Below, one piece after another: positions 1 to 54,575 of a stretch of DNA of 64,000 bases (position 1 is the first letter of the stretch; each line of letters opens with the position of its first letter). A program made the position numbers and the translations under genes. The notes under the pieces are model-generated. The model was given only the letters and a program-made list of their open reading frames with translations. It was not told where the DNA came from and did no database searches. This DNA comes from an uncultured Methanomassiliicoccales archaeon (GTDB lineage: Archaea > Thermoplasmatota > Thermoplasmata > Methanomassiliicoccales > UBA472), in NCBI GenBank assembly GCA_963695345.1, contig OY968769.1, forward strand, positions 2,464,001 to 2,528,000, read 5' to 3'.

Positions 1-1431
1 ATGTCGGCGCGAGCACCAACTCATTGAGCAATGTGAACCTGCGGATAAAGGAGGGGGAGTTCATCCTGGTGCTGGGTAAATCCGGTTGCGGCAAGTCCAC
101 CCTTTGCCGTGCGCTGAACGGCCTCATCCCCCATTTCTACGGCGGAAGGATCTCCGGTCACGTGGTCGTCGATGGCATGGACACCAGGCAGCATTCCACC
201 TGCGACTACGCCAACCTGGTGGGCATGGTGTTCCAGGACCCCGAGAACCAACTGGTCATGACCAATGTGGAGAACGAGATGGCGTTCGGGATGGAGAACA
301 CCTGCGTTCCCACCGCGATCATGAGGGAGAGGGTGCTCCAATACTCCGAATACCTGGACCTGACCCAGTTCCTGACCCGTTTCATCCCCGAACTGAGCGG
401 GGGGGAGAAGCAGAAGGTGGCCATGGCATCCATCCTGGCCATGCGGCCGAAGTACATTGTGCTGGACGAACCGACATCCCAGCTGGACGGGGACAATGCC
501 GTTCTGTTCCTGGAGTTCCTCAAGCAGATGAACCGGGAATTGGGGATATCGGTCATACTGGTCGAGCACCGGGTCGAACGATGCATAGACTATCCCGACA
601 GGATAATCGTCATGGACCAGGGCTCCATCGTGAAGGATGGACCGCGGGACGAGATGATCGAGTACATGAAAGGAATGGGTCTGCTGAACGCGCCGGAGGG
701 CCGCAATGTGGCCATCCCCGATGGCAATCCGGATATCATCGAGGCGGAGAACATCAGTTTCGGTTACGAAGGCCGGGAAGTGCTCAAATGCCTGGGACTG
801 AAGGTGAAGGCCGGAGAGCTGGTCTCCATCACCGGTGACAACGGGAGCGGCAAATCCACCCTGATGAAGAACCTCAATGGACTGCTGCGGCCAAGGACCG
901 GCGACGTGAAGGTCAACGGCAAGAGCATCTCCGGAATGACATCGGCGTCGATCGCCAAGACCATCGGCTATCTGGGGCAGAACCCTAACGACTACCTGTT
1001 CGAGGAATCGCTCGAGGCGGAGCTCATGTTTACCCTCCGTAACCTCAAGGTGGACCAGAGGGAATGGGATGAGCGGATCCACTGGGCGCTCGGGATCCTG
1101 GATATGGAACGATATCTGAAGCGGTTCCCCCGGGACCTGAGCTGCGGCGAGAGGGAGAGGGCGGCGTTGGCATCGATCCTGGTGGCCAGACCCAAGGTCC
1201 TGATACTCGACGAGCCGACCAGGGGTCTGGACCAGTGGAACAAGGCCAAGCTGGGGGATATCCTCGGCAAGCTCCGCTGCAGAGGGGCAGACCACCATCC
1301 TGGTCACCCACGATTACCGTTTCATCGCCGAATACTCCAGCCGGGTGCTCCGTTTGAAGGACGGGTGCCTGACGGAGATCTCCCTGGACGACATGATGGC
1401 CATGGCCAGGGAAGAGCTGGGGGTGGTCTGA
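1..1431 (+). CDS. ECF transporter ATPase with duplicated ABC domains (5' end probably outside the window; frameshift near 1290)
   Basis: Two Walker A motifs (GKSGCGKS, GDNGSGKS), Q-loop VFQDPENQ, signatures LSGGEKQ and LSCGERE, LDEPT twice. The C-terminal VTHD switch lies in a shifted frame; TGA 1429-1431 abuts the next ATG. Confidence 0.9.
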
Positions 1432-2216
1432 ATGGAGACCGATACGATGGATACCGTGAGCGTCAGGACGCATTCGCGGGTCACCTACAAGTCATTGGTC
1501 CCGACCTTCGCGACCATCATCGTGGGGGCGTTCATTCTCTATCTCACGTTCGTCAACTCATCGGAGCTGAAGACCTATGCGGCCTTGCTCACGAACGCCT
1601 TCATGCTGCTCCTGCTGATCACGTTCTTCGGCCGGTTCGAGGAGACGTCGGTAAGCTCGAAGGAGGTGGCCCTGATCGGCATCCTCGGAGCCATCATCGC
1701 CGCCTCCCGCATCCCGTTCGCAGCCATTCCCAACGTGCAGCCGTGCACCTTCCTGATCATGGCGGTCGGTCTGGTCTTCGGACCGCTGGCCGGGTTCATG
1801 GTGGGGGGCACGACCGCCATCGTCTCCAACCTCTTCCTCGGGATGGGGCCCTGGACGATCTGGCAGATGGCGGGATGGGGCTTGGTCGGCTTCGTCTCCG
1901 GACTCATCGGAAAGAAGAAGCAAGGAAATGAGCGTGGCCAAGATGGCCATCCTCTGCTTCGCGCTCGGCTGGATGTACAATGAGGTGCTTGACTTCAGCA
2001 GCTGGGTTTGGTTGTATAACATGGACCTGGCGAAGTTCCGTTTCATGTTCGGCGCAGGGCCTGCCTTTCGGACTATTGCACGCCGGAGGCAACGTCGTCT
2101 TCACCTGCGCTATCGGAAAACCGGTCCTGCGCGCGTTCCGTCGTTTCCAGTCCCGGTTCCAGGTGACCTACGTGGACAAGGTCCGTTCGCCCGCCGTCAT
2201 TCCGGATGAGGTTTGA
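1432..2216 (+). CDS. ECF transporter S component, CbrT-like (cobalamin/corrinoid), frameshifted
   Basis: Hydrophobic protein with KEVALIGILGAIIAASRIPF..IPNVQPCTF and G.GPWT.WQM.GWG; continues in ORFs 1928-2209 and 1980-2216. Confidence 0.8.
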
Positions 2217-4337
2217 CCGCCGGCCTTAGCATGTCCATGAGCTCGTCCAGGTCATGCGTCGGTTTGAGACAGCTGCCGTTCTGGCACAGATAGGCGGTCG
2301 GTCTTCCCGTCGATAGGGACCTTGTCCCTCAGGCTGGAGAGGTTCTTGCACTCGGCCAGTTTCTTTTCCCGAACCGGATGGAGCATCACGATCGAATAGG
2401 GAAGGTAGATGGAATTGACCGCGTCTATCATCGCCTTTGTCCGTTTATCGCCCGGGTCGCCCGCTATGACCAGTACCTGGGCTGGCTTCAGCATCATCCT
2501 CAGCCCCATGATGAAGAAGGACAATGCGTCGGGGACCTTGGACAGGTAGAAATCGTAGTACCTGGCGGAGCTAGTCGCCGCCTCGAGCAGCTTCTGGTCG
2601 TCGATCATCGAGGAAAGCAAGGCAAGGTCATAGGCCATGACCGAATTGGCCGAAGGCACGGCACCGTCGGATATCTCCTTGCTCAGATAGCACCAGGTCT
2701 TCCTTGGCCATGGAGTTGTAGAAGCCTCCCCTTTCGTCGCCGAACAGATCGATGGTCCTCCTCGTGTAATCGACCGCCCGGTTCAGGTAACGTACCTCGA
2801 AGGTGGCCTGGTAAAGCTCCAGCAGCCCCCAGATGTAGTAGGAATGGTCGGAGAGCATGCCGTTGACCCTCGCCTCCCCGTCACGGTACATATGGAACAG
2901 GCCGCCCTCCGGTGACGCCAGGAACCCTTCGATCGCATCCACCGCCCGCTTGGCCGCCTGCAGGTAACGTTCCTGCCCGAAGGCCCTTCCCGCTTTGGCC
3001 AAGGCGGCGATCATGAGGCCGTTCCAATCGGTCAGGACCTTGTCGTCACGGGCCGGCCGGATCCGCAGCTCGCGGACCGCCTTCAGCCTTTCCACGCATG
3101 TTTCCAGGTAGTCGGTCAGCTCGGCCGGGCTCATGTCGAACTTGGCCGCCAGGGTGGCAATGGTCGGCGGTCAGGTGCAGGAGGTTGCGATCGATGTCGC
3201 CCTCCCTGCCAGAACCGATGGTTCCCTCGGGATGCACATCGAAGCATTCCATGAAGATCTCGGGCCTCAGGTCCTTCAGCACATCCTCGATCTCTTCGTA
3301 GGTCCAGGTGTAGAACTTTCCTTCCACGCCCTCGCTGTCGGCATCCTCCGAGGCACAGAAGGCCCCCCTGCTCGGAAACCAGGTCCTTGAGGACATACTC
3401 GATCGTCGTCCTCTGCGACCTTCTTGAAATCGTCCTTGCCGGTGGCCTGATATGCCTCCACGTACGCGATGCAGATCAATGCCTGGTCATAGAGCATCTT
3501 TTCGAAATGAGGCATGATCCATTGTTCGTCGGTGGAATATCGGTGGAATCCCCCTCCGATATGGTCATGGATGCCCCCCAAGCATCATGTTGGTGAGGGT
3601 CCAGTCGGCCATTCTCAGGGCTTCGGCATCACCGGTGTCATGCCAATAGCGGAGAAGGAAGATGGATTTGTGCGGGATCGGGAACTTGGGCGACTTCTCG
3701 AATCCTCCGATACTTCTCCTCGTACGTCTTCTTCAAACCCCTAAAGGCATCATCCAGATAGTTGACGCTCGGCTCGCCCGGCCTGACGATCTCCATGGCG
3801 GCGATGTCCTTGACGATGGTCGAGGTGATGGATTGGATCTCTCCCTGCTCTTCCCTCCAGGCGGCGGAGATGGCATTCAGTACGGTGATTATATCCGACA
3901 TTCCGAACTGTCCGTTCCTGCGGAATGTAGGTCGCGGCGAAGAAAGGTATCTTCTCCGGCGTCATTACGATGGTCAGCGGCCAACCTCCGCCTCCGGTCA
4001 TGGCCTGGCATGCCTTCATGTAAAGCTCATCGATGTCCGGCCGCTCCTCCCGGTCGACCTTGATCGCCACATATTCCGCGTTGAGCGTTCTCGCGACCTC
4101 CTCGTCCTCGAACGACTCCCTCTCCATGACGTGACACCAATGGCAGGCCGAATAGCCTATGGAAAGGAAGATCGGCCTTCCGGTCCGCTTCGCCTCCGAG
4201 AAGGCCTCCTCACCCCAAGGATACCAATCCACCGGGTTGTGGGAGTGCATGATGAGATATGGGCTCTTCTCGTTCACAAATGGTTGGAGTGTTGCGGCTT
4301 CGGCTCCATGGACTACCTTCAGGGGAAGATTCATCAA
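2197..4337 (-). CDS. Thioredoxin-domain protein of the YyaL/SSP411 family, multiple frameshifts
   Basis: [59 protein letters not shown] and [13 protein letters not shown] are spread over consecutive ORF fragments. Confidence 0.9.
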
Positions 4338-4931
4338 ATGAATAAATTAACCTATGTATGCTGGATGATAGAAAGAGTGATTGTTCTAGGTCAAATAATC
4401 TAAAAAGGTAGAGGTCACGTGGGACCTCATACCTCGGTTTAGAAGGCGTTTGGAGTTGGTTGGGCCGGTGGCTCACCGCTCCTATGCGATCCTCTCCTCC
4501 TAAGAAAGTCCGCTTTTCGTTACCTCGAACGATTGCCAGTCTATCTTCGTCGGCTGGCTAACAAAGCCAATGCGTTGGTCGATATTTATGCTTTTCCGGC
4601 TTTCTTGGGTCGATTGGATTATGTTGACGTGTTTTTATTTGAAATATTTTCAGATCTGGCTTGTGAATCTGTGGATGGATTAACCATCCCGTTATTCGAT
4701 AATTATAGTTACTATAATATTAATGTGTGCATACGAACGAAGAAAAACGATCAGAGCATTTGGACGATATCCATTGGTTGTTCAAGGCATATTTTCCAGA
4801 TGCGCGGTCCTGACATGGCCTCGGCCGCTCAGATCAGGAGTCAATCCCTCTCCGATCGTCCGCCTGATCTTCTTCAATCTCGCGACCGCATGAAGGGGAT
4901 GTGCAGAGATGGACGCGGCTCGGTCATGAGC

Positions 4932-6386
4932 TCAGCGGGTCACTCTGTCAATCAGTTGCTTCTCCTTGTTATAGACCGAGATCTCCAGAGGCATCTGACC
5001 GACTGCGAAGTGGGTGGCGCACCCGAAGCAGGGGTCGTAGGCCCGGAAGGCCATCTCCACCTTGTTCAGTATGTTCTCGTCCACCTTTCCTCCGTGTATC
5101 AGGCCCTTGGCGGCATCGCGGATGCTCATGCAGATCGCCGGATAGTTGTTGGTGGTGGCGACGATCATGTTGACGTTCCTGCACCAGGGCGTTCTCGTCC
5201 AGCCGGTAGTGGTGGATGAGCGTTCCTCTGGCCGCCTCGACGATGCCGACACCCTCGCCTGGCTCTCCCGGCTTGTTCCGTACGTCGGTGCTGGTGATCT
5301 CCGGGTCGCTCGCCAGTTCGACGGCGCGTTCGGCCGCGTACAGCAGCTCGATGAGCCGGGCCCAGTGGAAGACCAGGGTGCCATGCGCCGGCTTGCCCAG
5401 CATCGCGAACATCCGCTCGTACTCCTGCCTGAGCCAGGGGTGTGGCCATCCCGTCCGCGGCGTTCAGCCGGCCAGGGGACCGACCCTGTAGATGCCATTG
5501 TCCGGTCCGTCGGTGAAGCCGTTCCACCCGACCTTCCGCAGGAAGGGGAACTTGGAGTAGGTCCACTCCTCCGAGCGCTCCTCGATATGCTCGGCGTAGT
5601 CGGCCGCCCCGAACCGGGAGAACTCCTTGCCTGAAGGGTCGACCACCCGGACCTCGCCATCGTAGAAGTTGACGCGGTTCTTCGCGTCCACCATTCCCAT
5701 GTAATAGGTCCTCATGGTGTAGGCGTCGCTCTTGATCATGTCCAGGTACTTCGGGTTGTCCAGCACCAGGTCGTGGAACAGCTGCAGCGTGAACTGGGCG
5801 AAGTTCACCGAGGACTTGGCCATCTCCAGTATGGCGAGTCGGATCTCCTCGCTGAGCGGCTTGCTCATCCCGCCGGGCAGTCCGCTGACCGGATGGGTGG
5901 CCTTACCGCCGATGATCTCGGTGATCTTCTGGCCATAGGCGCGGTGCTTGATCACCTCCTTGGCGACGTCCAGCCCCGCCTTCTCGATCACGCCCAGGAT
6001 GTTGCGCTTCTCCGCCGGCGCATCCGGTCCGACGATGAAGTCCGGTCCGCCCAGATAGTAGAAGTGCAGCGTATGGTCGTAGATGATGTAGCCCATGTAC
6101 TGGAGCTCCCTCAGCTTCTTCGCGGCCGAAGGCGGAGTCGACCTGGAACGCCGCGTCCAAGGCCTTGACCGAGGCGTAGATGGTGGGCCACCGGGCACAC
6201 CCCGCATATCCTGGTGGTGATGATGGGCATGAGCTCGGCTGGGCGGCCGACGCAGAAGGCCTCGAAGCCCCTGAGCTCAGGGACCTTGAGGTATGCGTTC
6301 TCCACCTCACCATCGTCGTTGAGGAAGATGGACACGCTGCCGTGCCCTTCCAGCCTGGTGATCGGGTCGATGTTGATCTCCTTCAT
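4932..6386 (-). CDS. mvhA: [NiFe] hydrogenase large subunit, group 3c (MvhA/VhuA type), frameshifted
   Basis: IDPITRLEGHG, L1 motif RICGVCP, EAARGTLIHHY, L2 motif RAYDPCFGCATH followed by a 25-aa C-terminal extension. Confidence 0.92.
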
Positions 6387-7366
6387 TCTTTCATCACCTT
6401 CCTTTGCAGGATGGACGCCGGCAGGCTGTACATGTAGAATATGCCCACCGGGTCCTTGATCTGCGATATGAGCTTGGTCGACTTCCTCGTCAGTGTACGT
6501 TCCCGGCTCCTTGTCCAGGTTCAGGATGGAGGCCAGTGCCGTGATCATTCCCGCTCCCATGTCGGGCTGGTTGGGCGCCGCACCGCCGCAGCCGGTGCAG
6601 GGCATGTCCACCTTGAGGCACTGGGCTCCGCAGCCGCTGCGGGTGGCCATCCCCATGCATATGATGCCCTGCTCCATCAGGCAGCGCTCCGGTTCCGGGG
6701 TGATCTCGTACACCCGGTGGATGCTGGAGATCTTCTTGTTCTCCCGCTTGCGGGGGCATTGGTCGCACACCGCCGGCAACGGCGCCAGGACCGAGCCCTT
6801 GGGAGGCAGTTCGTTCTTCACGATAGCTTCCAACGCCTTGTTGATGAGAACGACCGGCGGCGGGCAGCCAGGCAGGAAGTAGTCGACATCGACGGTCTGG
6901 TCCAGCGTCCTGACGGTATCGTAGAACATCGGAATGTCGAAGCGTACCCTCCTTCACGGCGGTCTCGGCTCGGGATAATGCGCCGTCGTCCGTGAACTTC
7001 GTTGCGAGTAGACCTGCTCCAGTATGCCCTTGGCATCGCTGAGGTTCGCCAGTCCGGGCACGGAACCCTCGTTGGCGCATGATCCGAAGGCGACCAGGGT
7101 CTGGGATTTGGAGCGGAGCAGCTTCGCCATGTGCTCCTGCTCGCTGTTCCGTATCGAGCCGTTGAAGAACGTGATGTCGATGTGACCGTCCGGCATCGCC
7201 TCGACGTCCTTGTACTTGACGTCCATCGCCACCGGCCAGAAGACGATGTCCACCGACCTTGACGACATCGAGAATCGTCTCGTTGATGTCCAGGACGGCT
7301 ATCTCGCAGCCGCCGCAGCTGGCCGCCCAGTAGAACGCTACTCCTCAGTTTCCGGTCGATGTTCAC
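6383..7366 (-). CDS. mvhG: [NiFe] hydrogenase small subunit (MvhG type), frameshifted
   Basis: FYWAASCGGCE, AFGSCA, LPGCPP, VCDQC, CLMEQGIICMGMATRSGCGAQC..PCTGCGG. Its stop overlaps the mvhA ATG (ATGA). Confidence 0.9.
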
Positions 7367-8805
7367 TCCCCCTCTTGTGCTCTCGTTCATGAGATATTCG
7401 TGCATCGCCTTGGCAGCACGCTTCCCTGCCCCCATGGCACTGATGACGGTGGCAGCACCGGTGGCCACGTCACCGCCGGCGAACACGCCCTTCAGGTTGG
7501 TCCGTCCCTCTGCATCGACGATGATGGTGCCGTTTCGCGGATTGGTCACCAGCCCCTCGGTGGTGCGCTGGATGATGGGGTTCGGCGTCTGGCCGATGGC
7601 GACGATGACGGTATCGGCCGGGATCTCGAAATCCGAACAGACAATGGGCTTGACACCCTGCCTGCCCCTGTTCGTCCGGTTCTGTCAGCTCCATGCAGGT
7701 GCATCTCATGGACTTGACCCAGCCCTTCTCGTCACCGTAGAACTCGATCGGGGCGCTGAGGAACTTGCACATCAACCCTTCCTCCTCGGCGTTCTCGATC
7801 TCCTCCCTCCTGGCTGGCAGCTCGTTCCGCGAACGCCGGTAGTTCAGGCAGACCGTCGCCCCTAGCCTCATGGATATGCGGGCGCAGTCCATGGCCACGT
7901 TCCCTCCGCCGATGACGACCACGTGCTTGCCGATGCGGATCGGGGTGTCCTTTTCCGGGAAGTCGTAGGCCTTCATCAGGTTGACCCGGATGAGGAACTC
8001 GTTGGCCGAGTAGATGCCGCCCAGGTTCTCACCGGGGCATCCGGTCCACTGCGGGAGGCCGGCCCCGCTGCCGATGAATATCGCATCGTAACCGTTCTCC
8101 AACAGTTCCGGGATGGTGTGTATCCTCCCGATGAGATTGCCCAGTCGCAGGTCCACCCCCAGCTTCTGCACGTACTCGATCTCCTTCTGGACGATCTCCT
8201 TGGGCAGACGGAACTCCGGGATGCCATAGCTGAGCACACCGCCGGCCACATGCAGCGCCTCGAACAACGTCACCTCATGACCTAGTCTTGCCAGGTCGGA
8301 TGCTGCCGTCAATCCCGCCGGGCCGGCACCGATGACCGCCACCTTCTTTCCGGTTGGAGGCACCTTCTCCGGGATCTGCACTCCATGCTCCCTCTCCCAG
8401 TCGGCCAGGAACCTCTCGAGGCGTCCGATGTTGACCGGATCGCCCTTCTTGCCCTTAATGCACTTCATCTGGCACTGCTCCTCCTGCGGGCAGACGCGTC
8501 CGCAGACGGCGGGAAGGGCGTTCTTTGACTTTATGATCGCAATGCCTTCGGCGTACTTTCCCTCAAGGATGCAGTCGATGAACTCCGGGATAGGCACGTC
8601 CACGGGGCAGCCTTTCCGGCATTGGGGGTTCTTGCACTTGCAGGCACCGGGCCGCCTCTTTCAGGGCCATCTCCTCGGTGTAGCCAAGAGCGACCTCGCT
8701 GAAGTTCTTGACCCGCTCGTCAGGCTCCTGCCTCGGCATCGGCACGTCCTCGTCCGTCGTAGCCCGGGCGCGTCCTCTCTTCTTCTCAGGCTCAGTACCG
8801 TTCAC
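7363..8805 (-). CDS. nfnB: NfnB/SudA (GltD-like) large subunit of electron-bifurcating NADH-dependent ferredoxin:NADP+ oxidoreductase, frameshifted
   Basis: ERVKNFSEVALG, EAARCL, PAVCGRVCPQEEQC, IGAGPAG, YGIPEFRLPK, GGGNVAMD, YRRS (NADP type), GVFAGGD..GAATVISAMGAG. Confidence 0.9.
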
Positions 8806-9635
8806 ACTTGCAGCCTCCGTTCGTTTCCCAAAGCATGGAACTCAACCTCTCTTCCGGGAGCATGGTGCGCTGGCGTTTGATGAGCTCGTCGAAGTTGGTC
8901 TCGTGCCCGTCGAACTCGGGGCCATCCACGCAACCGAACATCATCTTGTCGCCCACGGTCACACGGCAGACACCGCACATGCCCATGCCATCGATCATGA
9001 TCGGGGTCAAGGTCACAATGGTCGGGATGCCGTAGGGGCTGGGTCATCTCGCTCACCTCTTTCATCATCACCACCGGTCCCATGACCACGCACCGGTCGA
9101 ATCTCTCCGTCTGGAGGAGATCGTTCAGGAAAGCCAATCCCATTTTCCCCGCAGTCCCATCGTCCGAGGCGATGTGGACCTGATCGCTGTTTGCCATGGC
9201 CTCCTCCTTCATGAAAAGCAGATCGCTGCTCCTGCAGCCAAGGACCGTAGTCACATGGTTTCCTGCCGCCTTCAAGGCCTTGGCCTGAAGCAGCAACGGG
9301 GCGATCATTATGCTTCCGCCCACGCACAGCACCTTCCCGAAAGTTCCTGATCTCGGAAGGATTGCCCAACGGTCCGGTGACGTTGAACAGGCAGTCGCCC
9401 TGGTTGAACGTGCCCAGCTCCTTGGTGGTCTTGCCGACCTCATGGAAGGCGAATGAAACCGTTCCTTTCTCCGCGTCGTAATCACAGATGGTAAGGGGTA
9501 CTCTCTCCCCTCCCGTTTTCGCTATGACGATCAGGAATTGCCCCGGCTGAGCTTTGGCGGCGATCTCCGGGGCCTCGACCTCGAACAGGGTCATCTTGTA
9601 GCTGAGCGCCTTTTGGACAATATCTTGTATGTCAT
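8792..9635 (-). CDS. nfnA: NfnA/SudB small subunit (FAD, [2Fe-2S]), frameshifted
   Basis: AQPGQFLI, GERVPLTI, GPLGNP, IMIDGMGMCGVCRV..CVDGPEFDG; lies directly upstream of nfnB. Confidence 0.88.
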
Positions 9636-10850
9636 CATTCCGCCTCCCTTTGTAGCGGTATCTTTGGCATACGGCATGGTTGCGATCCTCTCGAAGAAAG
9701 CCTCGAACTTCTGGCTGAATTCGCCCTCACATCTCGGCGAGAGCTCGTGTATCTCGAACCGATCGAGCAATCCTGCTTCTTCAGAAAGGCTGTGAGGACC
9801 TCGAGCTGCCTTTCTGAGGTGTCTCTTCCCTGCTGGAGCTTGCAGTCCTTCGCCGAGCAGACTACCGCCATGACGCCGTCGAAGCCCTGCTCGAAGGCGC
9901 TAACCACCTGCACCGGGTCCATTCCCTTGAAGCAAGGTACCTCCATGACAAGAGCGTTCTTCCCTTGGAGCATCTTCTCCGGATCGTCCAGAGCTGAGTA
10001 CTCCGACCACTGGCAGCTGAGGATCAAGATGGCAGGTCTGCCGTCTCTGGCCCTTATCCTCTGTGCCGCGGCTCCATAGGATGCGATGAGATCTTTGAAC
10101 TCATATCCTTTGACGTGGATGGCGTTGTGCGGACAGACCAGCTGACAGGCACCACAGCCCATGCATTTCTCGGCATCCGTGGAAGGCGTGGAGAACGGTT
10201 CTGACTTGATGGCTCCGTAGGGGCATACGAACACGCATTTGCCGCAACCGACGCACTCACTGTTGTTCCTGACCACCTTTCGAGAATACTTCACGACCTT
10301 CAGCGCATCATCGGGATAGCCGAGCTGCTTGATGACCGCCTCGCCAAGTAGCATGCGCCTTGTCCCGATCCCGGTGCCTTCCTTCATACGGCAGAATCCG
10401 TCATGGCACTGGATAGAGATGATGTTCTTCACGCCCGACTTCAGGGCATTGAAAATGAAATCCGTCGGGATCCTTCCGGCGCATGGGATGCGCAAGGGCA
10501 GATAACCCTCCACCTTCAGGCCCCTGTCCGGCAAGGATGTCCTCGACCTCGCCGCTGCTGGGCGAGTTGCCCCTGCACATCATAACCAGCGTATCCGCGC
10601 ATAGGTTCTTTCGTGCCGATATGACGTAATCGAGCAGGTCCCCATAATCGTAGTATGACATCTCGATGGCCGAGACGGGACAGGCACTATAGCATATCCC
10701 GCAGACCTGACACTTTTGGATGTCTATGCTCAGTTTACCGCCATCGGGCTGACGGTCAATGGCCTCGAACGGACAAAGCGAGAAGCAAACCGTGCATCGG
10801 CTACAGAGGTCTTGGTCAATTCTAACGGCTGCAAGGCAGTTATCGTTCAT
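9635..10850 (-). CDS. mvhD: Tandem (2x[4Fe-4S] ferredoxin + MvhD-like [2Fe-2S]) x2 protein, frameshifted near 10535 and 9775
   Basis: Four CxxCxxCxxxCP motifs in two pairs. Each pair is followed by an MvhD-like unit (MMC/IPCAGRI/QCHDGFC and LSCQW/VPCFKG/GFDGV..CSAKDC). Confidence 0.8.
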
Positions 10851-11196
10851 ACCTGATATCCCCCTCAGGGTCGAAGAAATTCTGTGGCCGGGACATGTAA
10901 TCCAGACCGTAGAGGGCGCATAGACATCAACTTATTTATTGGATAGCTTTGGTCCATCCGCCGTTCACTGCAAAAGAGTCCTCGCGGAATCTTTACAGTA
11001 GCAGAGGTTGGATAATGGGTAGATTATATAATGAGTACTATCGAAGGTTCGTGAATGGTTTAGGTTACATTATTATGTGTCGAAATATTTCCTGGATATG
11101 GTAATAAAAATATATGCGTGGCTAAAATTAAATAGACGCATAAACATTAATTATATGAAAATTGAGACATCTATCGCGTAATTGCCGTAAGGAATC

Positions 11197-11231
11197 ATTC
11201 AAAGCACCGTTTTTGAATAGATATTATATAA
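11197..11231 (+). promoter_or_regulatory. Candidate gdhA promoter: inverted repeat ATTCAAA-N8-TTTGAAT immediately before a TATA-like ATATTATATAA
   Basis: Perfect 7-bp arms at 11197-11203 and 11212-11218; TATA-like element at 11221-11231; GGAG before the ATG at 11270. Confidence 0.5.
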
Positions 11232-11269
11232 GAAAAATTCCATTCCGAATCTTGTAGGAGCGTCATTAG

Positions 11270-12609
<1,340 letters not shown>

Positions 12610-40713: not shown

Positions 40714-40920
40714 ACAACCGAACAGGGATGCTGAGATCATCTACCATATAATGCTGGATGTTCTCGTTCGGGCGTTTAACGAACACCATTCCCGTCGATC
40801 GCCTTCTACCAAGTGGATCGCGTCCCCTGGAACATTGTATTGATATCAATCTACCAGAATTTTTTCTTAGATAAGAATTATTATATCTGGAATGAACATA
40901 CGGGTGTAGAGGGATGCACT

Positions 40921-42168
40921 ATGCCAAGTTCTTTTGTAAAGGATGCGCTAGCTAATGCTGGCGTAAAACAACCAGCCAATGCAAGCATGGGAAATCAACA
41001 AGCACCGGCCCAGCCAGCCTATCAACCGGCAGCTCCGGTCATGAGCGCCTCCGATGAGGAATTGCTCAGGATAGCGGCTTCGTTGGACGTTTGTATCAAG
41101 ATCGTCGGCTGTGGCGGTGGCGGAAGCAACACCATCAACCGCTGTGTCGATGCCGGAATAGCTGGCGGACAGCTCTGCGCTATCAACACGGATGCCAAGC
41201 ACCTGTTGACCATCAGGGCACCGAAAAAGATCCTGATCGGAAAGTCCAAGACCCGCGGGCTGGGAGCTGGAGCTAGGCCCGAGGTCGGAGAGGAATCCGC
41301 GCGCGAGAACGACAGCGAGATCAGGGATTTCTTGGCCGGCGCTAACATCGTATTCGTCACCGCGGGAATGGGCGGCGGCACCGGGACCGGCTCGGCGCAC
41401 TACGTCGCCGGTATCGCCAAGGAGCAGATCAGGGCGCTAACCCTGGGCATCGTCACCCTGCCGTTCAAGGCAGAGGGAACGATGCGTATGGAGAACGCAC
41501 TGTCCGGGCTGAACAAGCTGAGGCAGGTGTGCGACACGACCATCGTCGTACCGAACGACAAGCTTCTGGAAATGGTCCCGAAACTGCCGGTCGAAGCTGC
41601 CTTCAAGGTGGCGGACGAGGTCCTGATGCAGACCATCAAGGGACTCACCGAGATCATCACCAAGCCAGGCCTGGTCAATCTCGACTACGCCGATATCCAG
41701 ACCGTCATGAACGAGGGCGGTGTGGCATTCGTCGGTATCGGTGAAGGGAACACCGACAACGATGACCGCGTGGGAGCGGCCGTGCACGAGGCGCTGACCT
41801 CCCCGATGCTGGGCGAGGTCGACCTGAAGGGAGCCAAGGGCGCCTTGATCCGTGTTGTCGGAGGGCCCGACATGACCGTAGGAGAGGCCCAGAGGGCTGC
41901 GGAGATCGTCACCAAATCCATCAGCGAGAGGGCCCGGATCATCTGGGGATGCTCGATCGAGCCAGAACTGACCGGCACCATCAAGATCCTGCTGATCATC
42001 ACCGGGGCCAAGAGCCAGTACATGCTCGACGGCCGCGGAATGAACGGCATGAACACCCAGCCTTCGAGGGGAGCGCCTCAAACCCAGTATGCGCGCAACC
42101 CCGCCCCCCAACCGCAGCAGTACCAGCAATCAAGACAGCGCGACGATGATGTAGACTTCGTGCGCTGA
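40921..42168 (+). CDS. ftsZ: Cell division protein FtsZ
   Basis: [40 protein letters not shown]. Confidence 0.97.
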
Positions 42169-42196
42169 ACTTGGGGGCAAACGAGAACTGCGTCGG

Positions 42197-42230
42197 CGGA
42201 CGCACCCTTCCCATGCGGAAGGGGCGTCCG
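42197..42230 (+). terminator. Strong GC hairpin downstream of ftsZ
   Basis: CGGACGC-A-CCCTTCC-CATGC-GGAAGGG-GCGTCCG: 14 bp with one bulge. Confidence 0.45.
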
Positions 42231-42648
42231 ATATTCGGGTGCGCCGCCTTACTGATAGCAGGATAGGTTACAGGGTCCATCAAAAATGGATCGGATTAAT
42301 CACCTGTTTCATATCCCACTACAGTCGAAGTGCACCCTCTATGCAACCGGCGACGCGCACGAGCTACGATGCATTCCTCGGCCTTATCCATGGACCGGCG
42401 TCAACCCTTTTCATTTCTTGCTCTCAATTCTCATGTCGAGAACAAACTCGATGGCGTATCATCAATACAGGTCAGTCAACACAACATTGACCCAACAATC
42501 GCATGTTGATCTATCTTAGGAGTTCCTTTTTCGCTCAGGGAGGCAATGTATCTCCCCCATTTCGCCTCGTTCCATTCTGATATGGACATTATCCAGAACG
42601 ACCGATGACGAAGCTTGACAAATTCGATCGCTGATACAAATCTCAGTC

Positions 42649-43494
42649 CTATTCTTCCGAAATGTCAACCAGCGGATTTACCTTCTTGATCGCCTGCTCG
42701 AAATAATCCGGGTCGGTCAGAACAACGGACACGGCTTCGTTCACGCAGAACTCCGCACATCTCCCACAACCCCTGCAGGTCGAACCATCGATGGTCGCCT
42801 TACCGTCAACCATGGTGATGGCACGGACAAAGCAGATGTCCTGCTCAACGCACATCCCGCAGCCGGTACAGAGTTCTTCGATCACCTGCACCTCAAGACC
42901 GGGGAGCCGGGCCACTCCGGAGCCGATCGTTTCGTTCAGTTCCGGCAACATCTTCCAAAGGCAGCAACACTGGCAGCAATTGCAGATCGAGAGAAGATCT
43001 TCCTTCGGACCGGTATTTAGCCATAGGCTGTCGATCTTGTTTCTGCCAATGAGGTGCACCAGGCCGGCATCCCGGGCCTTCTTCATATGTTCGATGGCTT
43101 GCTCTGAGTCGACACGGCGGCCCATCTTCTCCGGGATACGGGTGACGCCGCGTCCGAGGAATATGCAACCAAGCTCATGCGGGTAGTCATGGCAATGGTT
43201 CGCCTCGCGGCACATGCAGGCGTTCATGATGAAAATATACCGTGAACGCCGCAGGAAATGATCGATGACCTGGGAGGGCAGTATGATGTTGCTTACTCCG
43301 ACCTCATGGTTGAGTTCGATGACCGTTCTCCTCACGGTCACATCACGGGGAAGATACATCATTTCGTCCCGCTCAAACAGGGCAAATTCAACCATCCGCC
43401 CAACCAACGGCAATCGGGTAAGTCGGGCTCCTAGGAATCTTTGCTTGAAGGTCGAACGGATCAACCGCGAGAACAGATCGGTACGGAGGCCCAT
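42649..43494 (-). CDS. 4Fe-4S binding protein with Cys-rich central domain
   Basis: CMCR...C..GC, GLVH, ICNCCQCCC, CTGCGMC..C, CRGCGRCAEFC. Confidence 0.85.
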   Translation of the reverse strand: MGLRTDLFSRLIRSTFKQRFLGARLTRLPLVGRMVEFALFERDEMMYLPRDVTVRRTVIELNHEVGVSNIILPSQVIDHFLRRSRYIFIMNACMCREANHCHDYPHELGCIFLGRGVTRIPEKMGRRVDSEQAIEHMKKARDAGLVHLIGRNKIDSLWLNTGPKEDLLSICNCCQCCCLWKMLPELNETIGSGVARLPGLEVQVIEELCTGCGMCVEQDICFVRAITMVDGKATIDGSTCRGCGRCAEFCVNEAVSVVLTDPDYFEQAIKKVNPLVDISEE

Positions 43495-43715
43495 CAGGAT
43501 ATCGTATTGACAGGATGGGTATATCAATTTGAGGGGAAATAACAAAGAACTGGATAGGATTGGGATCATCGCGTAAAGGAATCAGCATGATACATGGCCA
43601 TGCTGGAAACAACGAATAATTCTGATTTTCTAAGGAATCAAATCTGATTCAGGGACAATCAGTCTTAAAGCAGCAAAATTCGTCGCCTTGACGATCTTAA
43701 AGGGTTTGACATAAA

Positions 43716-46651
43716 ATGTGGCCGGAATTCCTGATCATCTGTTATTCTGTTTTTGTCATTTCCTGCTTGGTCATATTCATTGCCCTGCTGGGCAGGAGGC
43801 CGATCAGGGTCAGGGCAGGCTTGGTCATGCTTCCAGCTTGCGCATTGCTCTCTTTCGCATCGATAATTCAGACAATGTCCCCGAATTTCACGACCCTTCT
43901 GGTTACCTACTACTTCAACTCCCTCATGTTTGTGGTAATTTTCACCGGCTACATATTCTTCGCCGGAGAGTTCACCGACAGGTTCGATCCATTCAAAAAG
44001 AGGAACCTGATCCTGATACTTGCTGTCCCAGTGGTCGTCACTTTTTCGCTTATAACCGACCCCTGGCTTCACCTTTTCAATTCGTCATACTCTCTGTTGA
44101 GCGTACCGGACTTTGAACAGCAATTGCTCGGCATCCAGATATCGTGGATGAACTTCATATGGACCGCCTACTGCTATGTCATCGGGGCGATTTTCACCTT
44201 CATTCTTGCGGTGCGTCTGAACCGCGAACGCAGCAAGGTCATCCTGTACATATTCTTGATGAGCTTCGGGATCTGCTACTCCATGAACATCGGGTCACTG
44301 TTCTATGTGGACCTCATGGTGATGCCGATCGACGGGCTGTCGTTCACGTTTGTTACCCTCCTATTCTACACGGCAGCTCTGGGTTTCGGATACTTCGATA
44401 TTGCTCCAGTTGCGCGTAAGAAGATGTTAGATGTCATGAAGGACGCGATCTTCGTCCTCGATTCACAGGGTTCGATTACCGATGTCAACACTGCCGGTGC
44501 AGGATTGATCGGAAAGGAGAGGAACGAACTATTAAGAAAACCCCCATCCGCGATCATTCAAAAGTTCCCAGGATTGACAGAACTGATCATTCGAAAGGAA
44601 TCATTTTCGAACATCGAGACAAGCGATGAAATGGGAAGGACCTATAACGTGGAAATGATCCCCTTCCAGTACGGAAAGATCGGTCAATTCGGGAACATGC
44701 TGGTAATGAACGATACGACCGAAAGGAAGAAAGCGGAGAGGAAGTTCCTAGAGGCCGAGACCAGGGCCAAGATGGCCGAGGTCGATCGGAAATATAGGAC
44801 CCTAGTGGATAACCAGACCGAGTCGATCATAACCTTTGACGTGAATGGTAAAATCACATTCGGAAATCCTGTCTTTGACCGTATCATAAGGAAAATCGGA
44901 AAAGAACTTCATAAGGCCAACCTCAGCGACATCATGAGCGACATGGATAGGGAGACGATGTGGACCTTGATCCATAGGGCCACAGCCGGGAGGCCGGAAT
45001 TTCATTACGAACATATGATCTCATTCTCTGAGGATGAGGTCCTCTGGCTTCATTGGCAGGGAAAGGTGATATTCGACCAGAACGGCTCGATCAGAGAGGT
45101 CCAATCCGCCGCGATGGATATCACCGAGAAAAAGACCAGCGAGGCGGAATATCAGGCCATTGTGGAATGCCAGAAGGAAATGATAGTGCGGAGGACAAAA
45201 GCCGGCCGGATCAACTTTGCCAATCAGGCATTTTCCGCGTTCTTTGATGTCCCCATCGGGGAGCTCATCGGCAGCAGCTACTTCCCCCCGGCGGACGAGG
45301 AAGACATCATCTCCTTCATGGACGCCATTTCCTCGCTCACCAAGGATAAACCGGATCATGATTTTCTTCCTTTGAAAGTGTTCCTCGCCGATGATATCAC
45401 CAGGTTCACCGAATGGAAGGTGCGCGGCATTTTTGATTCCAAGGACCGGTTGATCGAATATCAGGCCGTGGGCAATGACATCACCGACAAGCTAAAAATG
45501 GAACAGGAGCTTGTCAAGACCCAGAAACTCGAGTCCATAGGGGTCCTGGCCGGAGGGATCGCCCATGATTTCAACAACCTTTTGTCCTCGATAGTCAGCA
45601 ACATCGAGGTAGCCACATCTGAGGCAACGATCGAGAGGGCTGCACGCCACAGGCTCGACGAGGCGGTAAGGACGGCTTTGAGCGCCAGGCGTCTTACTCA
45701 GCAGCTCCTCACATTCTCTACGGGGGGTAAACCGGTGAAGGAGGCAATGGACATCGCCACCATGTTGCGACCGAACATCGAGTTCACCCTCGCCGGTTCA
45801 AATGTCAAAGCTGATTACCGCATCACGAGCGATCTGCGCCATATCTCGGCGGACCCATTCCAGATCAGCCAGGTCATCAACAACCTGGTAATCAACGCCA
45901 TCCAGGCGATGCCAGACGGGGGAAGGATCATTGTGAACGCGTCTAACGCAGAGACCAAAGAGACGCCCACGGACCTGGCCGACGGAGTGGAATATATCGA
46001 GATATCCATAGCGGATACCGGTGCTGGGATGCCCGAAGAGATACAGAATAAGATCTTCGACCCTTTCTTCACCACCAAGAAGAAAGGAACTGGTTTGGGA
46101 CTTTCCACGGTTCAATCCATTGTCAAGAACCATCATGGAAGCATCCGGGTGGAATCCAAGCTGGGGGAGGGAACGACGTTCAACATCTACCTTCCAGCGT
46201 GTGAAAAGGACCTGATGGAGCTACCGGAACAACTACCCAAGGCGGTAAGGGTACGGGAAGCCAAGATCTGGTGATGGACGACGATGAGTCGATATTAGAC
46301 GTCCTTTCGATAATCCTTTCCGACATGGGCCATCATGTGGAGGTTGCCAGGACCGGGGAGGAGGCGGTGGAGTCTGTCTCCTCATCCGTCTCCGATAATG
46401 CGAGATTCGACCTGATCATAATGGACCTGACGATCAAGGGAGGAATGGGTGGGAAGGACGCTATCATACACATCCGGAGATTGGACCCGGAGATCCAGGC
46501 CATCGTATCAAGCGGATACTCCAATGACCCGGTGATGTCCGATCCCCAGAAATACGGTTTCAACGATGTTTTGCAGAAACCATACACCATACAGGAGATC
46601 AAGGAAAAGCTATCGACGATGCTCGGCGACGAAGTCGATCAAGGTTATTAG
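43716..46651 (+). CDS. Hybrid kinase: 7TM sensor (HisKA_7TM-like)-PASx3-HisKA-HATPase-REC; receiver split off by a 1-nt frameshift near 46270
   Basis: About 7 N-terminal TMs, LAGGIAHDFNN, FDPFFTTK.KGTGLG; KI|VMDDDE continues in ORF 46271-46651. Confidence 0.9.
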
Positions 46652-46991
46652 AAACAGACCGGTTTTGTTCATGTCGGAGCGATGTCATTTTCGGTCCTGA
46701 GGCACACTCAAGAGAGATTGTGGAAAGAATTGACCATGTTCCAAGCTACCCATTCGTTTAGCAACATATATTATCTAAAGAAGGCAGGGGAAGACAAGGT
46801 CGAATGTTCGGATTGAACAATTTCCAATTTATCGCTGAAATCTTCCCGCTTGTTCAAATATCTCAGGTCCGAATCATCAACCGTAGTGTCTGAGCTAATC
46901 GCGGCCTGGTCATGGACGATTGGAAAACATCGCCAGACTTCCGGCGAACCATTGGCGTTTGGACACGAGTTCGTTACAGGATGGGGATGAT

Positions 46992-47441
46992 ATGATAGGT
47001 CATCGTTGCGTACGGGTCTTGATAGTCGAGGATAAGAAAGCCGATGCACGACTGGTCCAAGCCTTGTTGGAAGAAACCGGTGTGCCAGCGACGATCACGT
47101 TTGTTGAAGACGGGGAAAAGGCGATCGAGTTCATGGAAGATGCCGCAAATGGAGACATTCCAGCGCCAGACCTTGTGCTGCTGGACATCAACCTACCTAA
47201 ATTGAACGGACATGAGGTCCTTACCCGCATTAGAGAGCATGCCCGAATTGCCCACACCTTCATCGCCATGTGTTCGGGTTCGAGTTCATGCGAAGACATC
47301 CGGCGCTCACGAAGCAATGGCGCGGATGCCTATCTTCTCAAGCCCACCGGAATGGAAGAAATGGACGAGATAGTGAACCGTTTGAGGGAGATCCTCACCT
47401 CGATCGATGGAACGGAACGCTTGATCTCTCTCCAGCACTAG
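46992..47441 (+). CDS. Stand-alone response regulator (Rcp1-like receiver)
   Basis: VLIVED, PDLVLLDINLPKLNGHEVL, AYLLKP. Confidence 0.88.
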   Translation: MIGHRCVRVLIVEDKKADARLVQALLEETGVPATITFVEDGEKAIEFMEDAANGDIPAPDLVLLDINLPKLNGHEVLTRIREHARIAHTFIAMCSGSSSCEDIRRSRSNGADAYLLKPTGMEEMDEIVNRLREILTSIDGTERLISLQH

Positions 47442-47496
47442 CGACCTCTTCCGACGCCTATCGATGGTCCTGACCCGAACCGTCGACGAAGGCCGT

Positions 47497-50112: not shown

Positions 50113-50332
50113 TATGACCTACCAGATGGACAACGCCGTAGTCCATTAGACACGTTATAAACGTTTCCACTTTGATACCACATTGAGGAGCATGAAGACG
50201 ATGGATCGATCAAGGTCCAGGAATTGCGATGAACAGCGTCTGCCCTCTTCATGAATCGAACCTCCTATCTTCCCCGCCCTTCGCGTATTTCACCGGTCGC
50301 TTCCAGAAAGGCGCCCACCGATCCGGCACCGA

Positions 50333-50600
50333 TCACAGGCCGAGGGCCACACCGGCCAGGATCGACAGAACACCGGCCGATATCAGTCCGACCACGTACT
50401 GCCTCTTGAACATGCTGGTCAACTGGTCATCCAAGTAGGCATTGGCATTCTTGAGGTTGTTCACCGATGCCTGAGCCCCGTTCTCCATGGTGGAGAAGAT
50501 CGTCTTGACCCCATTTGCCAGGTCTTCCAGGTCGTCCATGGAGTCATTGATGCCGTTCTTGAAGGTGGTATCCACATAGTTCCTTATCTGGATGATCTCC
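50333..50600 (-). pseudogene. 3' fragment of a helical, C-terminally membrane-anchored protein (or a short GTG-start gene)
   Basis: Protein-like ORF ending in a TM (VVGLISAGVLSILAGVALGL). The reading frame extends upstream to a stop located inside a hairpin. Confidence 0.45.
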
Positions 50601-50608
50601 GGGGGATG

Positions 50609-50630
50609 CCGCCTTCAGAAACGAAGGCGG
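50609..50630. terminator. Perfect 8-bp hairpin downstream of cheC
   Basis: CCGCCTTC-AGAAAC-GAAGGCGG. Confidence 0.45.
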
Positions 50631-50688
50631 ATCCAGGCGATCTGGGACACAACCACATCCGCTTTGCCCATTTCGCCTTGACGGCGGA

Positions 50689-51315: not shown

Positions 51316-51438
51316 CTCTAATCCGCCCTTTTCATCCAGACCTTCTGTGACATGAATCCACTGAATCGACGCCGACATCTAGAAGGCCAGGTCCAGGGCC
51401 GTAAATGCCGGGAAGGAAGGGGTTTAGATCGACTATGA

Positions 51439-51810: not shown

Positions 51811-52029
51811 CTTGAGAATGAACGCAACTTTTTGGTATATAATCCGGATTAGTCGCCTACTGTTTTTGATATTGAAAAGAACATGGGTGCCAGATCATAC
51901 AATTATCGATAAAATCATTCATTTCTGGATTTGGAACTAGTCGTTCTTGCATCAGCGAACAAGCCTCTCAAGGTAGCATAAACTCATAAAAGCGAATACA
52001 TTGAACGCAATTGACAGACCATTCCTCGA

Positions 52030-53346: not shown

Positions 53347-53482
53347 TGAGATCTCCTTTCCTTCGCCGGTATGGGAGATCTCGGGTATCGAACAGGGGAG
53401 ATACTGCTCATTCTTGAATTGCATCATGATTCAACCTGCTGGCGATGTCGATTATAGAGGACTGCCAAACAACCGTTCCAGA

Positions 53483-53791: not shown

Positions 53792-53813
53792 GATTATAAG
53801 TCTGAATCCACGA

Positions 53814-53997: not shown

Positions 53998-54492
53998 CTA
54001 TGGCAGGTTATTTAGAAGTGCTCTCTCCACCCGAACGGCAGCCGCCTCCACCTCGGGGGTCAGTCCCTCGCCGAAGTCCACGTTCTTCGGTTCGATCAGC
54101 AACAAGGCGATCCTTGCTCCGGTCAATGTGCTTACGTAATCGCAGAAGACCCTGAGGGGAAGGGTATGAGTGGAGATCGATGGGACATTGACCACCTCCT
54201 CAGCCTCGTACAGATGGGCGGTGCCTGGCTCAAGTCCGAGCAATGCCGCGTCAACGAGGAGCACATGGGAGGGGCTGATCGCCACGATCTCGTCAACGAA
54301 GCTCTCCGGTACTGTCTCGCATTCGATCAGGTGGACCGATCCCGAGACCTTGTCCTGGAGATCCTCCACGATCCTCACCCCGACGTAATCATCGGAGCGG
54401 ATCGAGTTGCCTATACCGGCCACCACGACACTGGTCGCGCCGTTTAGCCAGTCCCTCAGTTCTTCCTTCATTTCCTGGGTGTGCTGGTTCAA
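53998..54492 (-). CDS. hycI: Hydrogenase maturation endopeptidase (HycI type)
   Basis: VAGIGNSIRSDDYVG, ETVPESF, LVDAA, STHTLPL, FGEGLTPEV; GGAGG before the TTG start. Confidence 0.92.
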   Translation of the reverse strand: MNQHTQEMKEELRDWLNGATSVVVAGIGNSIRSDDYVGVRIVEDLQDKVSGSVHLIECETVPESFVDEIVAISPSHVLLVDAALLGLEPGTAHLYEAEEVVNVPSISTHTLPLRVFCDYVSTLTGARIALLLIEPKNVDFGEGLTPEVEAAAVRVERALLNNLP

Positions 54493-54575
54493 TTCAGGAC
54501 CTCCTGGTTGATTCGCTCGTGGTCGCGGAGAGTCCGGTGCTGGACGATTTACGCGCGCTGGCGGCAGACGCGTTG

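Follow-up and report, generated by a model that had tools for sequence, protein, structure and literature searches.

Using a 64,000-nucleotide window of the genome of an uncultured Methanomassiliicoccales archaeon (contig OY968769.1, positions 2,464,001 to 2,528,000; G000:C1:2464001-2528000 in our genome set), we identify a set of five genes, read on the minus strand from 10850 to 4932 in the order (Fd-MvhD)2, nfnA, nfnB, mvhG, mvhA, in which the genes of an NfnAB flavoenzyme lie between a gene with duplicated ferredoxin (Fd) and MvhD domains and those of an Mvh-type [NiFe] hydrogenase. The best explanation, which we consider probable, is that this is one operon for a soluble five-subunit enzyme that would use H2 and reduced ferredoxin to make reduced nicotinamide adenine dinucleotide phosphate (NADPH). 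We have the most confidence in one part of this proposal, a single H2/NADP(H)-linked complex of the five products; the specific reaction, in which H2 would take the place of NADH, is put forward more tentatively, at somewhat less than even chances. Physical association of the subunits, the point at which electrons from H2 enter, the direction of the reaction and its stoichiometry are all inferred from sequence. The genome itself is one contig of 2.56 Mb with 56% G+C, is 85% complete by marker genes, and contains mcrA.

Gene order and protein identities of the cluster

Our reading of the window, together with Pfam and tblastn searches, confirmed the five abutting or overlapping genes of the original prediction in their order, strand and coordinates. 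The (Fd-MvhD)2 gene lies at about 9639..10850 (Pfam Fer4 and FlpD on window fragments, with the exact stop obscured), and its product consists of two repeats of a 2x[4Fe-4S] ferredoxin domain plus an MvhD/FlpD domain. Next come nfnA at 8792..9638 (tblastn), encoding an NfnS-like protein with flavin adenine dinucleotide (FAD) and a [2Fe-2S] cluster, in which the NAD-binding GxG motif reads GGSIM, and nfnB at 7363..8805 (Pfam Fer4_20 and Pyr_redox_2 on a window fragment), encoding an NfnL-like protein with two [4Fe-4S] clusters, FAD and an NADPH site. The last two genes are mvhG at 6383..7366 (Pfam Oxidored_q6), for a [NiFe]-hydrogenase small subunit of MvhG type, and mvhA at 4932..6386 (Pfam NiFeSe_Hases), for the large subunit, and all five are on the minus strand. 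In the window, nfnA and nfnB overlap by 14 nt, nfnB and mvhG have GTGA in common, and mvhG and mvhA have ATGA in common. Tblastn of the whole genome with HdrA, HdrB, HdrC and MvhD queries placed no hdr gene in the window, in line with the predicted lack of hdrABC at this locus.

This arrangement is conserved in related archaea. From 340 relatives of an MvhA fragment we kept 80 loci for comparison, 22 of which carry Methanomassiliicoccales-type copies, and all five genes occur in the same order in 19 of these 22; the other three are cut by contig ends and none contradicts this order, with one of them, L018, still containing nfnB-mvhG-mvhA. The synteny on which the original prediction depended is therefore present, and nfnB abuts mvhG in all 20 Methanomassiliicoccales loci that could be assessed. 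In L011 each of the four gene junctions is a 4-nt overlap, in L009 nfnA and nfnB overlap by 14 nt, and the placement of nfnAB between the mvhD-like gene and mvhGA is intact in relatives, with overlapping stop and start codons. For L086 and L087 we used tblastn instead of lists of open reading frames (ORFs), since the high G+C content there gave many spurious ORFs. Our survey of 261 species genomes of the order identified (Fd-MvhD)2 in 37, comprising 32 of 46 in the window's own family plus the window genome (G000), 4 of 24 in family f6, and 0 of 174 in family f7, and NfnB of at least 75% identity was present in exactly the same 37 genomes. Taken together, these observations support the view that the five genes constitute one conserved, translationally overlapped operon.

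Protein scores and motifs were taken from intact orthologues in the Methanomassiliicoccales loci L009 and L011. The NfnB orthologue scores 608.7 bits against TIGR01316 (cut-off 471.75) and aligns over its full length with T. maritima NfnB (4ylf_B, 528 bits) and P. furiosus NfnI-L (5jca_L, 518 bits). Eight cluster cysteines are invariant in 19 NfnB orthologues, as is a YRR stretch, aligned with the NADP(H) region of solved NfnB, whose arginines would bind the 2′-phosphate. For the NfnA orthologue, the NF004862 score is 348.5 bits, above the cut-off of 220, and the solved NfnA proteins 5jca_S and 4ylf_A are matched at 277 and 268 bits; the FAD strand ERVPL(T/S) and the [2Fe-2S] motif DGMGMCGxCRV...C are kept in 19 of 19 orthologues. 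Passages of a review of Nfn enzymes are the source of the ERxPxT motif of the NfnA/NfnS FAD strand, and in part of the assignment of the arginines that bind the 2′-phosphate of NADP(H) (PMC6405883). The NfnAB pair is thus supported as a close homologue of solved NfnAB.

For the hydrogenase, the MvhA motifs RICGVCPVAHH and DPCFGCATH are readable both in the window translations and in L009 and L011, and include an N-terminal RxCGxC and a C-terminal DPCxxC, the nickel-binding motifs of the [NiFe] large subunit. The best NCBIfam matches of the MvhA and MvhG orthologues are VhuA (420.9 bits, below the equivalog cut-off of 800) and VhuG (215.9 bits, below the equivalog cut-off of 450). In the PDB, MvhA matches 7t2r_D (391 bits) and MvhA 5odc_F (383 bits), far above sulfhydrogenase alpha (114 bits) or Frh, and the best match of MvhG is MvhG 5odc_E (210.6 bits, full length), with 7t2r_E reaching only 69.5 bits. 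These profile and structure scores support the earlier assignment of an Mvh (group 3c)-type hydrogenase together with NfnAB homologues. The group 3c feature of being encoded with MvhD and linked to HdrABC is not found here, in that MvhD occurs as the (Fd-MvhD)2 fusion and the operon is free of hdr genes.

Intact (Fd-MvhD)2 orthologues are 403-405 aa in length and contain two FlpD stretches and four CxxCxxCxxxC motifs, and they resemble two copies of the ferredoxin-plus-MvhD part found at the C-terminus of HdrA2. The 16 ferredoxin cysteines are all invariant in 16 orthologues, as are four cysteines in each MvhD repeat (C92, C123, C148 and C153; C279, C306, C331 and C336 in L011 numbering). The protein is predicted to carry four [4Fe-4S] and two [2Fe-2S] clusters, with the type of the MvhD cluster taken from solved MvhD (38 bits to 5odc_D). 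The predicted fold of the monomer (mean predicted local distance difference test, 69.7; predicted template modeling score, 0.61) is too modest for cluster distances, and a complex prediction of NfnA, NfnB and residues 1-190 of (Fd-MvhD)2 from orthologue alignments, for which controls were not run, scored 0.00 against a mark of 0.32 and counts neither way.

The NAD-binding loop of NfnA reads GG(S/G)(I/V)M in all 19 hydrogenase-linked orthologues versus GGGVG in 4ylf_A and 5jca_S, i.e., the second glycine of the GxG motif is replaced by methionine in every one. At the end of this loop, 131 of the 150 best representatives, out of 8,649 in the library, have Gly, 6 have Ala, 2 have Met and 6 have another residue, with gaps in 5, and the two Met representatives are the query's nearest clusters. 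Glycine is kept in the stand-alone NfnA of the sister genera g3 and g6. In the loop GxGxxP of ferredoxin-NADP reductase (FNR)-type proteins, a side chain at this glycine would block the pyrophosphate of NAD(H), and the methionine of the cluster NfnA would be expected to do the same. The original prediction had allowed for an NAD-coupled reaction, and this option is disfavored because the glycine motif is altered in all of these orthologues.

Bathyarchaeia relatives and the gdhA neighborhood

The other 58 of the 80 loci are titled Bathyarchaeia or Bathyarchaeota, except one titled "uncultured archaeon", and their MvhA proteins are 72-79% identical to L009 MvhA. In 50 of these 58 loci hdrB is directly upstream of mvhG, and in none is nfnB adjacent; of the remaining eight, the upstream flank is not usable in five, and is present but without an adjacent hdrB in three (L042, L068 and L080). 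Pfam searches of three Bathyarchaeia loci gave the order hdrA(-like)-mvhD-hdrC-hdrB-mvhG-mvhA or hdrC-hdrB-mvhG-mvhA, and some loci contain NfnB-like matches of 38-41% upstream of hdrA. Since the Bathyarchaeia orthologues of MvhGA adjoin hdrCB, an exchange of Hdr for Nfn as gene partner is supported as real at the level of genes. The earlier claim that Nfn replaces Hdr therefore stands in this form, and is weakened by the same comparison, as this MvhGA type is encoded beside hdrCB in Bathyarchaeia; an association of MvhAG with HdrABC, which the original prediction had named as evidence against itself, is indicated by hdrCB adjacency for the Bathyarchaeia orthologues and was not seen in Methanomassiliicoccales.

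Relatives of the first three genes are also present in Bathyarchaeia. Full-length (Fd-MvhD)2 homologues are named from Bathyarchaeota metagenome-assembled genomes, and all five Bathyarchaeia genomes examined contain a (Fd-MvhD)2-nfnA-nfnB trio, with (Fd-MvhD)2 55-63% identical to that of L011, NfnB 67-78% identical to that of L009, and an NfnA that likewise has methionine in the NAD-binding loop. A gene for thioredoxin-disulfide reductase (TrxB) is located directly upstream of the trio at L143:8478-9410 (349 bits against TIGR01292, cut-off 343.45), and a second at L145:8424-9365 scores 335 bits against the same model and cut-off. Weak matches are present at the same position in L142 and L146. 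A distant second paralogue of (Fd-MvhD)2, 35-37% identical, occurs at L147:9557-10729 (G600:C1:225559-226734) with no nfnAB match within 10 kb. In the Bathyarchaeia locus L053, from a genome close to the Methanomassiliicoccales clade, a group 3b-like hydrogenase is encoded at 2982-6942 on the minus strand, divergent from hdrCB-mvhGA, and consists of a 638-aa Fer4_22+FNR-like fusion, a 245-aa small subunit and a 442-aa large subunit.

Phylogenies of both parts of the operon point in the same direction. In a quick IQ-TREE analysis of MvhA (82 rows, rooted on canonical paralogues, with L017 and L052 left out as too short), the Nfn-linked MvhA proteins form one clade (support 100) that is nested among Bathyarchaeia sequences (starred branches 97-99). 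In a FastTree analysis of NfnB (45 rows, midpoint root, with L100, L118, L143, L104, L018, L101 and L116 left out as short or containing stops), the 19 rows of NfnB from the Methanomassiliicoccales cluster (support 0.997) group with four Bathyarchaeia rows (0.92), at a great distance in the tree from the NfnB that sister genera of this family encode as a stand-alone enzyme. Because only four Bathyarchaeia rows are present in the NfnB tree, we regard the direction of transfer as tentative. Both halves, the trio and MvhGA, look Bathyarchaeia-like, and their union in one operon appears to be particular to Methanomassiliicoccales; the joining of trio and mvhGA in one operon provides a gene-fusion-type argument for an association of the trio with MvhAG.

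Upstream of the cluster, an intergenic region at 10851..11269 (sequence read), presumed to be a promoter region, separates (Fd-MvhD)2 from the divergent gene gdhA at 11270..12609 on the plus strand (tblastn, three frames), which encodes a glutamate dehydrogenase; the GdhA orthologue scores 770.5 bits against the NADP-specific model NF006929 (cut-off 536). With respect to the neighbors and DISPLACEMENT, gdhA is adjacent in 13 of the 16 Methanomassiliicoccales loci whose upstream flank is long enough. In the window's family, seven genomes contain a stand-alone NfnB, 54-58% identical, without (Fd-MvhD)2, and the hydrogenase-linked (37 genomes) and stand-alone (7 genomes) types of nfnAB are mutually exclusive, with no genome containing both. 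Both types are found at or near gdhA, for example adjacent to it in L134 and about 5 kb upstream in L133 and L135, and the order in G226 is gdhA-nfnA-nfnB. The conserved neighbors are users of NADPH, namely NADP-specific GdhA in Methanomassiliicoccales and TrxB upstream of the Bathyarchaeia trio. This gene content fits a scenario in which the hydrogenase-linked Nfn replaced an ordinary Nfn beside gdhA, with NADPH supply as their common job.

The order gdhA-nfnA-nfnB, with a Met-type NfnA, also occurs in an unplaced clade of metagenome contigs (P0001-type), in which convergent HdrA-Fd-MvhD fusion genes and a gene for an MvhA-like protein then follow; among 401 genomes sampled from the phylum, the best identity to this NfnA was 56%. 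One contig with a P0001-type gdhA-nfnAB, L110, also contains a membrane-type (group 4-like) hydrogenase cluster at 2-6080 on the minus strand, in which a Complex1_30kDa subunit is fused to a GltD/NfnB-like flavoprotein (598 aa).

The window genome contains further redox genes, including the separate canonical locus that the original prediction proposed to look for. This locus, hdrA-mvhD-mvhG-mvhA, is at 660-666 kb, and its MvhA is approximately 51% identical to that of the window; hdrCB genes are present at 940 and 1689 kb, and a group 4 membrane-type hydrogenase locus at 2.347 Mb. A canonical MvhA paralogue (51-57% identical) is also present in 4 of 4 complete relatives. The cluster nfnB is the sole Fer4_20 (NfnB/GltD) locus of the genome, so that there is no second NfnB, and no match to FrhB/FdhB-type (PF04432) or CofE (PF01996) proteins was found in the closed contig. 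These absences and the NADPH-using neighbors agree with the suggestion that the cluster would supply NADPH where coenzyme F420 routes are lacking; the wider suggestion, of a supply for the lineage at large, does not hold, since only 37 of 261 genomes contain the cluster, which is therefore not the general NADPH route of the lineage.

Proposed reaction and competing explanations

In the reaction we propose, MvhA and MvhG would form the H2-oxidizing [NiFe] module, with MvhA oxidizing H2 and electrons passing through the clusters of MvhG to the [2Fe-2S] cluster of MvhD, as in Mvh-Hdr, and then along the ferredoxin clusters of (Fd-MvhD)2, which would act as an electron wire to NfnAB. NfnAB would serve as the flavin module, in the place held by HdrABC beside the orthologous Bathyarchaeia hydrogenase, and NADP+ would be reduced to NADPH at the flavin/NADP(H) site of NfnB. 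Two electron inputs would be confurcated, i.e., H2, entering through NfnA instead of NADH, and reduced ferredoxin, entering through the NfnB clusters and supplied by Mvh-Hdr, would together reduce two NADP+. We place the entry of H2 on the NfnA side because NfnB resembles a standard bifurcating NfnB, and because NfnA has an altered NAD loop with its FAD and [2Fe-2S] motifs kept.

The cellular NADP+/NADPH couple is near -380 mV. Values given in part of a published account are about -280 mV for NADH, -414 mV for H2 at 1 bar, and about -500 mV for ferredoxin (PMC9304861), and by our own calculation H2 at approximately 10 Pa is near -300 mV, i.e., NADH-like. On these potentials H2 alone is too weak to reduce NADP+, and H2 together with ferredoxin would suffice. 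In its fullest form, which we hold only tentatively, the proposal is of an undescribed confurcating class, a Mvh-(Fd-MvhD)2-NfnAB supercomplex using H2 for NADH and yielding two NADPH, whose module would have been assembled in Bathyarchaeia (as the trio, with mvhGA encoded apart), passed to Methanomassiliicoccales, and there displaced an ordinary NfnAB beside gdhA, providing biosynthetic NADPH without F420 routes.

The same operon evidence and the same NADPH-using neighbors would also be expected of a simple, non-bifurcating H2:NADP+ oxidoreductase in which electrons run from MvhAG through (Fd-MvhD)2 and NfnAB to NADP+ without ferredoxin. This would be a group 3b-like function that could reverse as an NADPH-driven H2 valve, and group 3b enzymes do join a [NiFe] dimer to an NfnA-like gamma subunit, although NfnA matches 9nez_C weakly (48.6 bits). 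We consider this explanation unlikely, since NfnB scores as high as it does against bifurcating T. maritima NfnB (528 bits) and has kept the YRR stretch and all eight cluster cysteines. In Nfn, the potentials of the bifurcating FAD are strongly crossed and a single mid-potential branch cannot fill this flavin, and environmental H2 is too weak for the cellular NADP+/NADPH couple unless coupled.

Less probable again is that the operon encodes co-regulated but physically separate enzymes, with NfnAB acting alone and MvhAG and (Fd-MvhD)2 serving HdrABC or ferredoxin. NfnAB is stand-alone in all characterized cases in the sections of the Nfn review that bear on this point (PMC6405883), and in Bathyarchaeia MvhGA is beside hdrCB and the trio is without a hydrogenase. 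Against such a separation, the nfnAB genes sit between the mvhD-like gene and mvhGA and all junctions have overlapping codons, co-occurrence is strict (37 of 37 genomes), a canonical hdrA-mvhDGA already exists separately, and the NAD motif of NfnA is altered. Even at loci that lack an adjacent hydrogenase, a gene for an MvhD-domain protein accompanies nfnAB, which is not easily reconciled with a free-standing Nfn.

A further alternative concerns the window copy itself, as every one of the five genes lacks an intact ORF in the assembly. Alignment of intact orthologue proteins demonstrated at least 14 frame changes in 5.9 kb, with at least two each in (Fd-MvhD)2, nfnA, nfnB and mvhG (three with L009 queries) and five in mvhA, and an in-frame stop at 6954-6956. 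The gdhA gene next to the cluster is broken across three frames, and the canonical hdrA-mvhD-mvhG-mvhA locus is in many pieces with the same kind of breakage. Contigs from a sediment run, which represent relatives and not the window strain and are 88-99% alike, have one window base "left out" at break sites, in 12 places that we listed and 25 more. No RNA run was found for the stretch, the sole match being a DNA run from sediment (share of words, 0.10). The places of breakage are not long homopolymers, and several are at CTCC-like words. Outside the cluster, a gene at 2252-4337 on the minus strand is split into at least four overlapping ORFs, and single-base breaks are widespread.

The gene for a hycI-type maturation protease, at 54001..54492 on the minus strand (tblastn, 75% identity over residues 1-164, single frame), is approximately 49 kb from mvhA in the window genome, the only genome with this separation, and its orthologues are directly 3′ of mvhA in 21 of 22 related loci. 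Relative to L011 and L007, synteny is broken such that the block of cluster and gdhA is parted from hycI and its downstream neighbors (40863-56069). This displacement reflects either rearrangement or misassembly. The first ~18 kb of the window have a G+C content of 52-62% (2-kb bins, 8 of 9 bins at least 57%), and the rest is mostly 50-55%.

The number of frame changes, the in-frame stop, their spread over all five genes and the displacement of hycI in this genome alone could together mean that the cluster is a decaying pseudogene array in which the frame changes are real. We judge this improbable, and slightly more so than the separate-enzyme explanation above. The frame changes are very probably assembly errors, because gdhA has the same kind of breakage, as does hdrA-mvhDGA, a locus required for methanogenesis, and because all differences from the related sediment contigs are single "left out" bases and the closed contig is only 85% complete, versus 99% for the closed same-genus genome G218. 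Identity to orthologues also stays at 56-99% inside each frame segment. Recoding or programmed frameshifting was rejected, as the orthologue frames are uninterrupted and unrelated genes are broken too.

Finally, an enzyme in which H2 replaces ferredoxin, with (Fd-MvhD)2 docking at the distal [4Fe-4S] cluster of NfnB and NfnA using NAD(H) or another partner, is very improbable, since the second glycine of the NfnA GxG motif is methionine throughout the orthologues and H2 and NADH together are too weak for NADP+ reduction at cellular ratios. In its favor, (Fd-MvhD)2 contains ferredoxin domains and ferredoxin normally docks at this cluster, as described in a section of the Nfn review (PMC6405883).

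Several observations weigh against a dedicated H2-dependent NfnAB enzyme, and we give them here together. In the five Bathyarchaeia genomes with the trio, no hydrogenase match was found within ~10 kb of it, and the orthologous MvhGA of Bathyarchaeia adjoins hdrCB; this arrangement implies that the hydrogenase type can belong with Hdr and that the trio can exist without a dedicated hydrogenase, so the trio may have other electron donors. The cluster is absent from 224 of the 261 genomes of the order, including all 174 of family f7. The effect of methionine on NAD(H) is deduced from a general FNR-family motif, and the P0001-type NfnAB clade has methionine with no hydrogenase in the operon, only convergent HdrA-Fd-MvhD genes, which means that the Met signature predates the operon fusion or is independent of it. 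With all five window genes frame-broken and hycI displaced, function in this particular strain is not assured.

Related enzymes and meaning

Judged from its genes, the cluster appears to be a new combination of known modules. It shares with MvhADG-HdrABC (5ODC) its MvhA (383 bits to 5odc_F), its MvhG (211 bits to 5odc_E) and MvhD domains, and Bathyarchaeia orthologues of its MvhGA are beside hdrCB. It differs in that the operon has no HdrA, HdrB or HdrC, that MvhD is a duplicated Fd-MvhD fusion, and that NfnAB is present as the putative flavin module, so that the acceptor would be NADP+ and not heterodisulfide. With NfnAB/NfnSL (4YLF, 5JCA) it shares the high scores of NfnB (528 and 518 bits) and NfnA (268 and 277 bits), the cluster cysteines, the FAD strand and the YRR stretch, and it differs in the location of nfnAB within a hydrogenase operon that includes an MvhD-domain protein, and in the Gly-to-Met change of the NfnA GxG motif. 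P. furiosus NfnII (Xfn, 5VJ7), according to parts of a recent paper, has an occluded NAD site and an unknown high-potential partner (PMC12506544). Its motif also departs from GGGxG, but by a loop and an Arg instead of Met, and no hydrogenase or MvhD partner is known for it; the cluster NfnA scores 182 bits against NfnII versus 277 bits against NfnI.

The group 3b sulfhydrogenase (HydABDG, 9NEZ) is likewise a soluble [NiFe] hydrogenase that reduces NADP+ via an NfnA/PyrK-like gamma subunit. The scores of the cluster against it are weak (chain D 114, chain A 67 and chain C 49 bits), and it is without an NfnB-type or MvhD-type subunit, whereas the cluster is without HydB. Membership of group 3b was rejected on these weak scores and on the lack of a Fer4_22/AsrA-like gene in the operon. 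An HdrA with an inserted NfnB/GltD domain is described, in portions of two papers, for ANME-1 (HdrA9-11) and for Bathyarchaeota ("type III HdrA", encoded with mvhADG) (PMC9012536, PMC12054007). This is another proposed joining of an NfnB-like NAD(P)H module to Mvh/Hdr pathways, but there the module is a domain of HdrA and HdrBC is kept, whereas the cluster is free of HdrA and has a complete NfnAB. The putative "glutamate synthase-linked" [FeFe] group A2 hydrogenases, in the extract of the relevant survey, are coupled to a GltD/NfnB-like flavoprotein (PMC5037454). They and NiFe-HydABCSL (7T2R), whose chain 7t2r_D is the top PDB match of the cluster MvhA (391 bits), resemble the cluster in the genetic coupling of a hydrogenase to a GltD/NfnB-like or NuoF-like flavoprotein, and differ from it in the catalytic family, which is [FeFe], or in the flavin module, which is HydABC.

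In the sections that cover distribution, a 2019 review of Nfn gives archaeal homologues as seemingly restricted to Methanomicrobia, Thermococci and Thermoprotei and mentions no [NiFe] context (PMC6405883). The original prediction knew of no characterized complex of this composition, and we likewise found no published description of mvhAG-nfnAB in full-text searches of the literature, although supplementary gene tables or subscription journals could list one.

If the five products are one enzyme, they would represent a new combination of modules among the flavin-based bifurcating and confurcating systems, in which a group 3c hydrogenase drives an Nfn core instead of Hdr. The parts belong to well-understood families, and expression, assay and cryo-electron microscopy are therefore feasible. 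Conservation of the (Fd-MvhD)2-NfnAB trio suggests that protein partners are the electron source of Nfn enzymes whose NAD site is disabled, which may bear on the partner of Pyrococcus NfnII. For the organisms themselves, an enzyme of this kind would provide a testable answer to how NADPH is obtained from H2 in F420-poor methylotrophic methanogens and in many Bathyarchaeia.

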